From: Ruditapes philippinarum
Lineage: Eukaryota
DNA length: 64,000 nt
Direction of reading: 5' to 3'
Assembly: GCF_026571515.1 (NCBI RefSeq)
Contig: NW_026852812.1
Location: 190,256-254,255, forward strand
Part shown: piece after piece, positions 47,111 through 50,987 of the stretch
Position numbering within the stretch: position 1 is the first letter of the stretch
How the letters are laid out: each line of letters starts with the position of its first letter
Program-made: the position numbers and the translations under genes
The notes under the pieces: generated by a model
Databases searched by the model: none
Told to the model about the DNA's origin: nothing
What the model saw: only the letters and a program-made list of their open reading frames with translations

Positions 47111-47291
47111 TTTGGCTTCTTGTTCTTTTCTTGCTTTCTTTGCTTTTTAATAATCCACCAGTTCTCTGCTGTCAATTTTTCTTTCTTGACTGTTGCTCCT
47201 CCCCTTCCTCTACCTCTGCCACGCCCACCTCTTGTAGATGCATCACTTGGGGTGTTGGCTTCAATTTCAGCCATAGCAATGATATTTGCCT
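47111..47291 (-). CDS. TEP1: TEP1 exon with RGG/(RG)n and basic patch (ANIIAMAEIEANTPSDASTRGGRGRGRGRGGATVKKEKLTAENWWIIKKQRKQEKNKKP)
   Basis: Acceptor ttttag|AG, donor CCAAA|GTAAGT. Cross-checked against the antisense plus ORF 47120..47305. Phases 2 nt in, 2 nt out. Confidence 0.75.
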
Positions 47292-47645
47292 CTAAAAAAA
47301 GATGACAATTCCTATTACATTTTTGTTTTTGAAAGATTTTTTTTAATACATGATATATATCTCTAGTACTAAAAGTTTAACATTCAGATTCAGGGCTTTT
47401 TCCAGCAATTTTGGGAAAAGGCCCCCTGTCATAAATTGAGAAAAAATATTCAGCATTTAGGGAAATTTTAGAAATTTTCAAAAAAATGAAAAATTACCTT
47501 ATACATGACATTTTAGTTTTAACAATGCAAATGATTATAAAACCTGTCACCTTTTTTTAAGATACAGGTCAAAACAGTTCAATATTTCTCCAAAGTCACT
47601 ATTTATATTAAACAGCATGAACTAAAACAAGGAATGGTGTCTTAC

Positions 47646-47736
47646 GAGAGATTTCATAATCCTTCTGCAGTTGTTCCAGAACTTCGTATGCAGAGAAAAA
47701 TCTGAACGGAAATTGCTTGCTGTTGATAACTGATCT
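47646..47736 (-). CDS. TEP1: TEP1 exon, TROVE (RSVINSKQFPFRFFSAYEVLEQLQKDYEIS)
   Basis: Anchored on ORF 47608..47790. Acceptor tttgcag, donor C|GTAAGA. Matches human KSVIHSRQFPFRFLNAHDAIDALEAQL. Confidence 0.85.
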
Positions 47737-48446
47737 CTGCAAATAAAAAAATTCAACTTGCTTTTTTTCAAAAAAATAAAACCAATACAAATGTACAAGT
47801 GAGTGTAAACTTTTGCAAAACTAAAATTTCAACTTTTGTTATCTTAAAATCTGTTTAACACTGCCATGCATGTTCAAAAATAAATCAAACAGAGAGTGAA
47901 TTATATGTAGGTTTATCACATTTGGCGATATTAAACTTGCCTATTGCTCCACCCATTTCCTTAACTCTGCCACGCCCACCTCTAGTGGCTCTAGTTTACT
48001 ATTATTTATATTGCCAACAGTCATACCCACACTTACATTGCCACATGGCAACTTCAGGTTAAACTCCAGGTCTGATGTTGACAAGCTTAGCTCAGTGGGT
48101 GGGCATCAGATTTGTTTTCAATGGTTGAATGGTTCACGGGTTCTATGTTCGAAGCTAAGTGTAATTTCTCAGTCACAATTTAGCTCAGACATTGTGTATT
48201 AAGATCATTTGTCTCAAGAATCTTGTGTAATTAGTACTCTTAGTCACTTGCTGAGAATTTTTTAAATACTGGTTAGCAATATTAGGTGGATTGAGCAAAA
48301 GAAATATGGCCATAAAAAATTGTGTTCAATTCAGCATTAAAAACCAACCAACCATGTAACCAACTATATTTCAGACAAAATTTTACGCTACCTTTATTTC
48401 ATTAGCTATTCTTTCAATAAATTGAAGCAATATAACAATAAAATAC

Positions 48447-48556
48447 CTCGTCTGTCAGTCTCCGGATGACTCCAGTATGATGTTTGGAGGAAATCCCAGC
48501 TTTAATCAGATTTCTCAAATTCCGTAACATGGCCATGAAAGGTAATTTTTTGTGAT
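48447..48556 (-). CDS. TEP1: TEP1 exon, TROVE (HKKLPFMAMLRNLRNLIKAGISSKHHTGVIRRLTDE)
   Basis: Acceptor ttttcag|AT, donor GAG|GTATTT. Matches human GKLPFMAMLRNLCNLLRVGISSRHH. Coordinates counted by hand. Confidence 0.7.
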
Positions 48557-49094
48557 CTGAAAATATTTAAAAAAAAAATATTTAATACATTGTGTATAAA
48601 TGTGCATATAAGCCATACATATCAATCTACTTCCTTTCCACATACAATGACAAGTCCACATATTATTACAGCATTATTGGGCATAATTTCTTAGCCAACA
48701 TTTTTGTTAATCTTTTAAAGAAAGACAACTTCTGATGGTACTAAACAGCAATCAATGATTCCCTCCCCTCCATTGGTTTAAAGATATTTTATTTAGAATA
48801 TTTGAACATGTTTAAATAACAACATAACAATACTTATAGATTTTGGCCGAAAGCAGAAGCTTATAGAAGCCATTAATGATGGGTGGTCTTGAATGCCGGC
48901 CAAAAATAATTGCATGTATGCTATTGTTATTTCTACATACTTTCCATATGATTCAAGAAAAAAAGAAGATTTTTATTTAAAAAAATTCTCTAACTCAAGT
49001 ATTAAAATATTAATAAAGCCTTGAAAAAGGAATGTCCATTTAGTGAAAACATTTATTCAAGCTTTATTGTGAAAAGTTGTCGCAAGTTAGATTA

Positions 49095-49225
49095 ATCCTT
49101 CTTGAATCTGCCTCCAGAAACTAACCAGTTATGATGTCATATGAGCAAACATAGTCGTGACCCAAGTAGGGTTCAAACCCATAATCCCTGGATAGAGAGG
49201 CAGACATCTTAATCATTTATCAACC
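49095..49225 (-). mobile_element. tRNA-derived SINE fragment
   Basis: Reverse tRNA-like head: gcctctctatccagggattatgggtttgaaccctacttgggtcacgac. Confidence 0.55.
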
Positions 49226-49317
49226 AAGACAAAGAAACGGATGACAAAATATGTAAATATATCACTCAATGTAACAGAGTTCCAGACAATTTTCATAAAA
49301 TAATGAACAACTGATAC

Positions 49318-49475
49318 CTAGCAATTCTTGCCAAGTTGAAGCCTTGTTGCCTTTAAGAGATACCTGGGTCTCCCAGGTTTCAGGTACAGGAAGTTTCATT
49401 CTTTTCCCAGCCCTCTCCTCCTCAAATGTACCAGGCAACCTGGACCTGTAAAACTCATCTAGAGAACTTGGGTAC
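49318..49475 (-). CDS. TEP1: TEP1 exon, TROVE (YPSSLDEFYRSRLPGTFEEERAGKRMKLPVPETWETQVSLKGNKASTWQELL)
   Basis: Acceptor tttgcag|G, donor CTAG|GTATCA. Matches human YPSNLQLFSRSRLPG..RAGKRMKLSRPETWERELSLRGNKASVWEELI. Coordinates counted by hand (+/-2). Confidence 0.7.
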
Positions 49476-49971
49476 CTGCAAATTAAAGTACATTTATTTT
49501 TTTAATTTGCAATGCATTCTTGTGAATTAAGGGAATTATGACTGTAGAATTATATTGTTTATTATAGTTTCCATCCCTCATGTACTGACTTAAAACGAGT
49601 CTGCACTTTTATGTCTGCACTTTTATGTAATTTTGTCGTGATTAATGCTTCCAAGGGATCACCCTTTCTCCAGATTTTTTTCCAGATTCATATTTAATAG
49701 TGATTTACTACTGTTCATATTTTAAGAATTTGCATGCCCTTTTCCTGCTCCTATAATGATTATAAATTATCTCTCACATGAAAAATCTATGCAATGAAAA
49801 TAAAATCAATTTAAAGGAACCATTCGTTATTTATAGAATATTTCAAATGAAACATGAATTTTTCAACTAGTTTCTGTAATGTGTATTTTTCCATAATAAA
49901 AGTACAAATCTATTTATAGACATTCAAAGTTATTTATAGAAAATCTCAGCTCTTTATAGACTGATCCTCAC

Positions 49972-50123
49972 TTTTTCCCAATAAGACACATGACATGTTC
50001 GACTGGTTCCGTGATGTGTAGTTTTCTGATAAGTTGTTTAATTGTGAAGCTCATTTTCTGAAGTTGTTCTGGACTTTCTCCATCATCAAACAGAACGGAT
50101 GACAAATTCTTTTCTCTCTCATT
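49972..50123 (-). CDS. TEP1: TEP1 exon, TROVE (NEREKNLSSVLFDDGESPEQLQKMSFTIKQLIRKLHITEPVEHVMCLIGK)
   Basis: Anchored on ORF 49968..50150. Acceptor ttgcag, donor AAAAA|GTGAGG. Resembles human FTLKKLVQRLHIHKPAQHVQALLG. Confidence 0.8.
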
Positions 50124-50751
50124 CTGCAATATTGAAAATATTTTCTCCATAAATATACTAAACCAAAAGCTTCAATTTATTATCATATTTACACATTTAA
50201 AGTTTTCTCGATTTCTGTATAAGTGGATATTTCCGCATGTCGAAAAGTTTGCGTGAGGAAATATTAGCAAATCATGCAAGGTTAGAATTAAATGACGGGT
50301 TGGTTCATATTTAAGCTAGAGGAAATGTTAGCGATTTTCGTCAATTTGCGAAATTTGCAAATATTTCTGCATGACTTACTTACTCACATACAGTACTAAA
50401 CAACATAGCTGACATTCTGTGAACAAGTGTTAAACTCACTGCCTTTCATCTCTACTTGTCACATACTGCTGTGAATTTGAACCCTATCAAGGGCATATAT
50501 TTTTTTTTCCTGCCAGAAAGCTATTTGAACTAGTTTATGTAAGAGTGGCGGTTTTACTTTGGTTTTACTTTGGTGCCAATCTAGTGAATGAAAACATTTA
50601 ATCTTTTTCCAAAACAATAACCAGCTACTTAATTTGCTCTCTTGCAGCATAATACAAATTCATCACTACCTAGCATTTGACTAACTTTGAAATAACTTGA
50701 AACGCAGGCAAATAAAATGACTTCAATAATACTAATACATAAAACAAATAC

Positions 50752-50987
50752 CTGTCTTCGAGCCTCAGCCTCCTCATCCGAGTCTACTTCTGAACCTGAG
50801 CTCAAGCTGTCAGAGTCCAACACTGATGGGCCCCTGCCTACTGCAGCCCCGCCTCTTCCTCTAGCAGCACCACGTCCTCTACCTCTCCCCCGACCTCTAC
50901 CCCTACCCCTACCTGATTCAGTGGCTTCTTCTGCCTTCTTCATCTTCTTTTTCTTCTTTTTTTTAGAGCTTTCCTTGTTATATTTCG
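50752..50987 (-). CDS. TEP1: TEP1 exon with poly-Lys and (RG)n low complexity (KYNKESSKKKKKKKKMKKAEEATESGRGRGRGRGRGRGRGAARGRGG...SDEEAEARRQ)
   Basis: Anchored on ORF 50629..50943. Acceptor ttgtag|CG completes AKYN, donor CAG|GTATTT. Plus ORF 50717..51037 is its Pro-rich antisense image. Confidence 0.75.

Follow-up and report, generated by a model that had tools for sequence, protein, structure and literature searches.

TEP1, the telomerase protein component 1, is a minor vault protein that binds vault RNA; its function is still poorly understood and, to our knowledge, all of its biochemistry comes from mammals. The stretch of DNA analyzed here is a 64,000-nucleotide window of a contig of the clam Ruditapes philippinarum (NW_026852812.1, positions 190,256 to 254,255), and the element in question is a TEP1 gene on its minus strand, in which two exons of the TROVE region encode runs of arginine-glycine (RG) dipeptides. 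Coordinates are positions in this window, and strands are given relative to its forward strand. Recent work on TEP1 has dealt with DUF4062, a TIR-like NADase domain, and was not able to resolve density for TEP1, and hence for its TROVE module, inside vaults (bioRxiv 10.64898/2026.05.01.722283). Our sequence and fold searches of the Protein Data Bank (PDB) found no solved TEP1 TROVE structure and returned remote TROVE/Ro60 entries only. No paper linking RG or RGG motifs to TEP1 was found in the literature searched, and RGG is absent from the TEP1/TROVE papers retrieved.

RG and RGG motifs bind RNA, and the described systems closest to the clam blocks are RNA-associated proteins that carry such segments. 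SmD1 has a tail of uninterrupted GR repeats of about 7-9 units, as is found in clam TEP1, and SmD3 and LSm4 are other Sm proteins with C-terminal GR-repeat tails. The Sm tails are C-terminal extensions of the small Sm fold, whereas the clam RG blocks are internal loops of a protein of more than 2,500 residues with TROVE, putative NACHT, and WD40 parts. The RGG/GAR segments of hnRNP U, FUS, nucleolin, and fibrillarin resemble the clam blocks in being disordered, rich in Arg and Gly, located on RNA-binding proteins, and potential substrates of protein arginine methyltransferases (PRMTs). They differ in that the clam blocks are of the RG rather than the RGG kind, have no interspersed Phe or Tyr, and are shorter than the nucleolar GAR domain of about 50 residues (PMC9957100).

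As far as checked, the domain order of vertebrate TEP1 matches that of the clam protein (TROVE, DUF4062, a P-loop NTPase region that is putative in the clam, and WD40 repeats), and the two are alike in the flanks of the loops where the RG blocks lie (YQLAKYN ... LKxLIRxLHI and FPFRF(F/L)SAY). The loops themselves differ: in vertebrates they carry only short patches rich in Lys, Arg, His, and Pro and no RG runs, whereas in the clam they are longer and hold 10 and 5 RG dipeptides. The TEP1 of the sperm whale, our mammalian proxy, is without the RG cassettes and reads PRTHRAKRRPHRPPRPP at the first of the two loops. Ro60 and bacterial Rsr are the prototypes of the TROVE fold, and TROVE/Ro60 structures gave the best fold matches to a model of the clam TROVE region; the difference is that the match in sequence is remote, with only residues 290-372 aligning well in the PDB sequence search.

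Results

Gene Model and Coding Status of the RG Blocks

Ten exons of the TROVE region were chained on the minus strand from open reading frame (ORF) blocks and an enumeration of AG/GT sites and phases, giving one open frame of 501 codons (Table 1). The acceptor regions of most of these exons are pyrimidine-rich. The exon with the first RG block (the RG1 exon, at site 1) is bordered by an acceptor ending in ccattgtag and a donor beginning with gtatttg; its translation is (A)KYNKESSKKKKKKKMKKAEEATESGRGRGRGRGRGRGRGAARGRGGAAVGRGPSVLDSDSLSSGSEVDSDEEAEARRQ, which is laid out as KYNKESSKKKKKKKMKKAEEATES-G(RG)7AARGRGGAAVGRG-PSVLDSDSLSSGSEVDSDEEAEARRQ. The exon with the second block (the RG2 exon, at site 2) lies between an acceptor ending in ctttttttag and a donor beginning with gtaagta, and its translation, ...ANIIAMAEIEANTPSDASTRGGRGRGRGRGGATVKKEKLTAENWWIIKKQRKQEKNKKPK, is laid out as ...TPSDAST-RGGRGRGRGRGG-ATVKKEKLTAENWWIIKKQRKQEKNKKPK. 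Since the lengths of the two exons leave remainders of 2 and 1, respectively, when divided by 3, skipping either of them shifts the frame.

Table 1. Positions of the TROVE-region exons of clam TEP1 and of the segments within the two RG exons.
Feature	Position	Strand	Remarks
TROVE-region exons, full span	43473..52450	minus	GT-AG sites, matching phases, single continuous frame
Individual TROVE exons	52450-52316, 51847-51686, 51439-51343, 50987-50752, 50123-49972, 49475-49318, 48556-48447, 47736-47646, 47291-47111, 43653-43473	minus	
TEP1 exon with the site-1 loop (poly-Lys, RG block, acidic Ser/Asp patch)	50752..50987	minus	236 nt; phase 1 in, phase 0 out
Poly-Lys KKKKKKKMKK, opening of the site-1 loop	50935..50964	minus	K-rich stretch here kept in most invertebrate TEP1s
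RG block 1, G(RG)7 AARGRGG AAVGRG	50830..50913	minus	10 RG dipeptides; tri-RG motif
Acidic Ser/Asp patch LDSDSLSSGSEVDSDEEAE after RG block 1	50764..50820	minus	S-x-x-D/E (CK2-like) motifs inside
TEP1 exon with the site-2 loop (linker, last long TROVE helix to start of vWA-type domain)	47111..47291	minus	181 nt; phase 1 in, phase 2 out
RG block 2, RGGRGRGRGRGG	47197..47232	minus	5 RG dipeptides; tri-RG motif
Basic segment KKEKLTAENWWIIKKQRKQEKNKKP with NWW/WW motif, after RG block 2	47113..47187	minus	predicted helix H423-436

Runs of at least three consecutive RG/RGG units occurred just twice in the six frames of the window, at 50869-50910 and 47197-47232. Both fall in the TEP1 reading frame, and no such run appeared in 200 first-order Markov simulations of the window. 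A microsatellite artefact was considered and rejected: the 6- or 18-nt period is imperfect, with a 75-85% match over 50876-50914 (Tandem Repeats Finder), and the codons are mixed (AGA, AGG, CGG, CGT, and CGA for Arg, all four codons for Gly), so the RG blocks are not a clean microsatellite.

The Mercenaria mercenaria locus (L002) has counterparts of both exons, at 10455-10703 for the RG1 exon and 15673-15849 for the RG2 exon, with identical boundaries. A second line of evidence is an 8,636-nt contig (L001, run SRR5588588) with an uninterrupted ORF of 2,752 residues, P0199, whose source species was judged from its sequence to be a bivalve. Since in two clam genomes the exons of the same gene number in the dozens and stretch across more than 50 kb, this intron-less contig must stem from a spliced mRNA. 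The window exons map back to back on it, and P0199 keeps RG runs at both sites (SGRGRGRGRGR...FRGRGRG at site 1 and ARGRGRGRGRGR at site 2).

It could be argued that the RG segments are not part of the mature protein, being unrecognized introns or exitrons or else assembly artefacts. The RG1 exon is mostly of low complexity, with only its first codons (KYNKE) and the acidic patch widely conserved, the annotated protein of the scallop Mizuhopecten is without exactly the RG1 segment that is present in Pecten, and the transcript that holds both blocks belongs to a relative of Ruditapes. We nonetheless consider this explanation highly improbable. The phases need the full exons, the RG blocks are purine-rich on the sense strand and have no polypyrimidine tract there, and the same exons with the same boundaries are found in the independent Mercenaria genome. 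The intron-less contig holds both blocks, and transcriptome-derived protist sequences have RG runs at the same sites. Judged from the sequences, then, the RG blocks are genuine in-frame coding sequence and not introns or artefacts.

These results agree with an earlier note on this DNA, which had placed the two exons at exactly these positions with exactly these peptides (the splice sites are canonical and the phases consistent) and had read the blocks as in-frame coding sequence within TROVE rather than missed introns. Two of the checks that the note had proposed bear on this point. The comparison of orthologues spoke against assembly artefacts and introns, and the check on transcripts came out favorably in that both blocks are retained in a spliced contig, albeit one from a related species. 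For genome annotation, the outcome means that these low-complexity exons are genuine and that gene models should neither mask them nor splice them out.

A 51-nt copy of the core that encodes RG block 2 (47185-47235) was observed 751 nt away on the same strand, at 47936-47986, within the intron between exons 48556-48447 and 47736-47646. The copy is 82% identical and holds an exact 19-mer, CTCTGCCACGCCCACCTCT, that is found nowhere else in the window. The similarity ends past about 55 nt, and the copy is not present in the orthologous Mercenaria intron; it looks like the relic of a small local duplication. A transposon or exonized repeat as the source of RG block 2 was rejected, the sole other copy in the window being this intronic fragment, with no extended similarity and absent from Mercenaria.

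Selection on the RG Exons

The comparison with Mercenaria showed considerable codon turnover under a conserved peptide. In RG block 1, 12 of the 21 Arg/Gly positions that are identical in the two clams differ in codon, including AGG or AGA versus CGT, and in RG block 2 this is the case for 6 of the 11 conserved positions. The ratio of nonsynonymous to synonymous divergence (dN/dS, Nei-Gojobori method) amounted to 0.06 in the RG1 exon and 0.16 in the RG2 exon; over the RG cores alone it was 0.08, and over the eight folded TROVE exons 0.016. All of these values are rough, as dS is saturated (pS about 0.70) and the alignment of the repeats is ambiguous. The ratios of the RG exons are still far below 1. 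This pattern suggests that purifying selection maintains the RG cassettes in bivalves.

The segments next to the blocks are conserved as well. The acidic patch that follows RG block 1 is kept as DSDSSSS..DSDEE in every bivalve orthologue aligned, and the WW motif that follows RG block 2 is kept as (N/M/K/Q)WW(I/L/M/A)xKK in the aligned bivalves and is also present in several gastropods.

Identity of the Gene

The domain content and the homologues identify the gene as a full TEP1 orthologue, which is also what the earlier note had called it. On the spliced protein of 501 residues, the Pfam TROVE match (PF05731) extends over residues 3-474 (E = 1e-104, 351.6 bits), so both RG blocks lie inside the TROVE envelope. 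The downstream ORF blocks include DUF4062 (PF13271, E = 4e-16, above the cut-off) and a P-loop, GKPGTGKS. A fragment joined from approximate exon pieces gave sub-threshold NACHT scores (17 bits for PF05729 against a cut-off of 26.7, and 21 bits for nSTAND1), and the collinear Mercenaria orthologue bears PF05729. Further downstream, WD40 (PF00400) was found with E = 1e-37 and four repeats in one 164-residue piece, PF25048, the TEP-1 C-terminal beta-propeller, scored 52.7 bits against a cut-off of 32, and WD40-like ORF blocks run on down to about position 6,000.

Full-length homologues were searched with a crude concatenation of ORF blocks of 2,094 residues from which the low-complexity parts had been removed; with these parts kept, the candidates were swamped by common RG and K words. 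The best matches were all TEP1, with that of the hard clam Mercenaria mercenaria at the top (3,704 bits), followed by Mactra, Mya, Potamilus, Pinctada, Pecten, Mizuhopecten, Lingula, Tegillarca, gastropods, nemerteans, amphioxus, and echinoderms. Among the best 120 matches, the named proteins are all TEP1, TEP1-like, or TROVE-domain proteins, and the remainder are unnamed predictions. The TROVE region shares 88.4% protein identity with the Mercenaria TEP1-like protein over 508 aligned positions, in keeping with a clam that is a relative of Mercenaria yet separate from it. Between about 56,500 and about 6,000 in the window, some 55 exon blocks follow the same order as in the Mercenaria locus; the aligned blocks are exon-sized and have 72-91% nucleotide identity, and the introns are unaligned except for copies of one interspersed repeat. 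Each of the ten TROVE exons maps collinearly, with 73-87% nucleotide identity.

TEP1 has a second region of low complexity in this clam. Its N-terminal exons (about 55567-55779, 54914-55041, and 53945-54327, minus strand) encode stretches rich in Ser, Leu, and Thr (SSSLLSSSL..., LSSGSSFLSK...), which are kept with Mercenaria at 72-75% nucleotide identity.

Location and Charge of the Two Loops

An AlphaFold2 model of the TROVE region was built from an alignment of 61 sequences (mean predicted local distance difference test, pLDDT, 83; predicted template modeling score, pTM, 0.73). Its best fold matches are TROVE/Ro60 structures (9kop, 9l5y, 2i91, 2nvo, and 9nen, each with a probability of at least 0.98). 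The RG cores, model residues 168-202 for block 1 and 406-418 for block 2, have pLDDT below 50 and are flanked on either side by long helices; both RG blocks are thus predicted to be intrinsically disordered surface loops. Site 1 interrupts the helical-repeat part of TROVE and presents, in this order, the poly-Lys stretch, modeled at the end of the long helix H128-162, the RG block, and the acidic Ser/Asp patch. At site 2 the RG block is followed by the basic WW segment, which is modeled as a helix (423-436).

Charges were computed over the loops of full-length TEP1s, 116 for site 1 and 111 for site 2. The median charge of site 1 without RG is +8.5 in the N-terminal half and -9 in the C-terminal half, and with RG it is +15.5 and -7.5; the net charge of site 2 is +6 without RG and +9 with it. 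The RG cassettes add about 35-40 residues to the loops, plus positive charge. Site 1 is thus charge-segregated whether or not RG is there. As even loops without RG have a basic arm, followed at site 1 by the acidic half, the RG runs lengthen basic arms that are already present. By the same comparison, the poly-Lys and acidic stretches are general features of the TEP1 loops and not specific to the clam.

Distribution of the RG Runs in Animals and Protists

For the survey, site 1 was defined by the flanks YQLAKYN and LKQLIRKLHI and site 2 by FPFRFFSAY and RYRKALD. RG runs are present at both sites in Mercenaria, Mactra, P0199, Potamilus, Pinctada, Pecten, Tegillarca, Patella, and Batillaria. They occur at site 1 only in Mya, Lineus, Capitella, and the rotifer Adineta, and at site 2 only in Mizuhopecten, Aplysia, Bulinus, Biomphalaria, Lingula, Tubulanus, the hemichordate Glandiceps, and Branchiostoma lanceolatum, with weaker runs in Physella and Pomacea. 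Neither site has a run in six echinoderms, Priapulus, Amphimedon, an Ephydatia-like sponge sequence, the chiton Liolophura, Candidula, and Octopus, or in the vertebrate TEP1 fragments examined (Physeter, Scyliorhinus, Ascaphus, Staurois, Amia, and Ophiophagus). Outside the animals, TROVE proteins derived from protist transcriptomes carry RG runs in the amoebozoan Flamella aegyptia (site 1) and the cercozoan Papus ankaliazontas (site 2). Apart from bivalves, the animal carriers comprise gastropods, a brachiopod (Lingula), nemerteans, an annelid, the rotifer, the hemichordate, and amphioxus. The bivalve carriers span Imparidentia, Palaeoheterodonta, and Pteriomorphia, all three major groups sampled, and the RG blocks are therefore clearly maintained within bivalves.

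The frequency of the runs depends on the sample. Of the best 120 full-length matches to the RG-free query, 18 carry a run at site 1, site 2, or both, and 97 carry none; a run elsewhere in the approximately 2,500 residues was seen in 2 of these 120 full-length TEP1s. Among the best 150 of 5,517 family representatives in an alignment-profile search, a run was present at site 1 in 1 of 100 and at site 2 in 4-6 of 92. The distribution fits either of two histories: an old origin of the cassettes followed by many losses, or gains that recurred at two loops permissive for them.

The blocks had been described as lineage-specific. That description is right in so far as vertebrates, echinoderms, and sponges are without them, and the basic patches of vertebrate TEP1 are indeed much shorter than the clam blocks, as had been stated for the human protein, in all proxies used (sperm whale, shark, frog, snake, and fish). 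It does not extend to the many other invertebrates and the two protists that have RG runs at the same loops. On these alignments, the RG motif is widespread in invertebrate TEP1s and not specific to the clam lineage.

In Pecten maximus (P0203), the RG1 block lies between two poly-Lys runs, and the annotated Mizuhopecten yessoensis protein (P0204) is without exactly that block, with the K runs joined. This absence could be a true deletion or a difference of gene model or exitron, and the contrast between the two scallops is the sole hint that RG1 may occasionally be removed.

The main rival to a functional role is that the runs are tolerated low-complexity filler, born by slippage in loops that accept nearly any hydrophilic sequence, without a specific function and with a conservation that reflects compositional inertia. 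Filler would account for a patchy phylogenetic distribution, in which the run was cleanly lost at site 2 in Mya and at site 1 in Mizuhopecten, for the rarity of the runs across the family, for the differences in length and exact sequence among species, for RG exons that evolve several-fold faster than the folded ones, and for the hexamer periodicity that is detectable in block 1. It accounts less well for Arg and Gly being kept while about half of the codons have changed and dS is saturated, given that some of the changes are AGR to CGT, for which at least two substitutions are needed, or for dN/dS values of 0.06-0.16. Both blocks also persist in the three bivalve groups, and RG runs are limited to two loops, with essentially none in the other approximately 2,400 residues. 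We regard filler as possible, if on the unlikely side.

Class of the Motif

A tri-RG motif is defined as RG(X0-4)RG(X0-4)RG, and di- and tri-RGG motifs as RGG(X0-4)RGG(...) (PMC9957100). Both clam blocks are tri-RG motifs. They are not di-RGG or tri-RGG motifs, block 1 having a single RGG and block 2 two RGG separated by 6 residues, and neither block contains Phe, Tyr, or Trp; the earlier term "RGG box" is therefore, strictly speaking, in need of correction. Nucleolar GAR domains, as in fibrillarin, nucleolin, and GAR1, have about 50 residues with more than 10 RGG/RG units and interspersed aromatics, mostly Phe (PMC9957100). The clam blocks are not of this type either, with 10 RG over about 28 residues in block 1 and 5 over 12 in block 2. 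Uninterrupted GRG repeats, a feature of Sm-type tails and PRMT5 substrates, are found as G(RG)7 in block 1, for which the PDB sequence search gave a weak match to the GR tails of SmD1 (E = 0.002-0.01). PRMT5 prefers GRG, and symmetric dimethylarginine is found mostly in RG-repeat proteins (PMC9957100). The clam blocks resemble the SmD1 GR tail more closely than the RGG/GAR domains of the FUS or nucleolin type.

This resemblance bears on another explanation, namely that the RG/basic loops serve mainly for localization or protein docking, either as nuclear or nucleolar import signals or as a methyl-arginine platform for Tudor domains, as in Sm assembly. The poly-Lys stretch adjoins the RG block at site 1 and a K-rich segment follows it at site 2, block 1 resembles the SmD1 tail, PRMT5 has a preference for GRG repeats (PMC9957100), and the conserved, phosphorylatable acidic patch beside a basic arm suggests a regulated switch. 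On the other side, the loops sit on the RNA-binding module, the GR repeats of Sm proteins are C-terminal tails while those of the clam are internal loops, and nothing in the present data separates docking from contact with RNA. As the main function of the loops it is unlikely; it is compatible with RNA contact, and the two are not mutually exclusive.

Repeats and Other Features of the Window

Two satellite arrays lie inside TEP1 introns, at 38716-40282 (161-bp unit) and 44562-46174 (166-bp unit), each with about 9.7 copies and an 88-91% match. Smaller arrays have units of 34 bp (4341-4606), 40 bp (9593-9737 and 10433-10605), and 28 bp (59504-59672, with six perfect copies). The window also holds four copies of an interspersed repeat about 240 bp long (6240-6480, 2542-2786, 440-615, and 33484-33609), which contain pseudo-ORFs such as ...MDPDQTARMRRLVWIHAGRK. 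The same repeat occurs in at least six places in introns of the Mercenaria TEP1 locus, with 74-90% identity, and is probably a family common to both clams; no tRNA-like part was detected in it. No tRNA or other non-coding RNA genes were found in the 64-kb window.

Discussion

On balance, we consider it somewhat probable that the RG blocks are disordered basic arms that act as auxiliary RNA-binding sites and/or arginine-methylation sites on TROVE. The RNA-contacting role is proposed because RG/RGG motifs are established as RNA-binding. It has indirect support in the predicted disorder of the segments, in the basic charge pattern that the loops share across TEP1s, and in their location on an RNA-binding module. 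The arms would be flexible extensions of TROVE that contact RNA without sequence specificity and through which the TROVE ring would bind its small-RNA ligand with higher affinity or avidity. The uninterrupted GRG repeats would be probable substrates of arginine methyltransferases, and methylation would tune RNA binding or create docking sites for Tudor domains. The adjoining acidic patch, with its CK2-like, phosphorylatable Ser/Asp motifs, could mask the basic arm intramolecularly.

Several observations weigh against this proposal. RG runs are a minority state in the unbiased family sample, and the cassettes are dispensable: Mya does without block 2, Mizuhopecten without block 1, and Octopus, the chiton, the echinoderms, and the vertebrates without both. 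At the protein level, the RG exons change about 4-10 times faster than the folded exons, and the dN/dS values carry the saturation and alignment ambiguity described above. The transcript support comes from a contig of a related species and not from Ruditapes itself. The earlier note had suggested that the RG module may change RNA binding or phase behavior; the lack of aromatic residues near the RG runs weakens a FUS-like reading in terms of phase separation. No functional, methylation, or RNA-binding data on invertebrate TEP1 were found in the literature searched.

A bolder extension would be that the TEP1 of the ancestral animal, or of an older ancestor, bore SmD1-like GR arms in two TROVE loops, that these were methylated in the manner of PRMT5 substrates and coupled vault RNA loading to a Tudor/SMN-like assembly, and that vertebrates lost them. 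We hold this scenario to be doubtful, a long shot at present. If it were true, the assembly or regulation of TEP1 ribonucleoproteins in spiralians would follow a mechanism that cannot be seen in mammals.

TEP1, TROVE, and RG motifs are each well known, and clam TEP1 is best filed with the RNA-binding proteins that have an RG motif under selection, as an otherwise ordinary case of a disordered RG motif on a protein of this kind. The two loops mark a variable surface of TROVE that is probably RNA-facing or regulatory, and the presence of selected Arg-Gly arms at two fixed loops in many invertebrate TEP1s may provide a cheap, testable handle on the RNA-binding module of TEP1.

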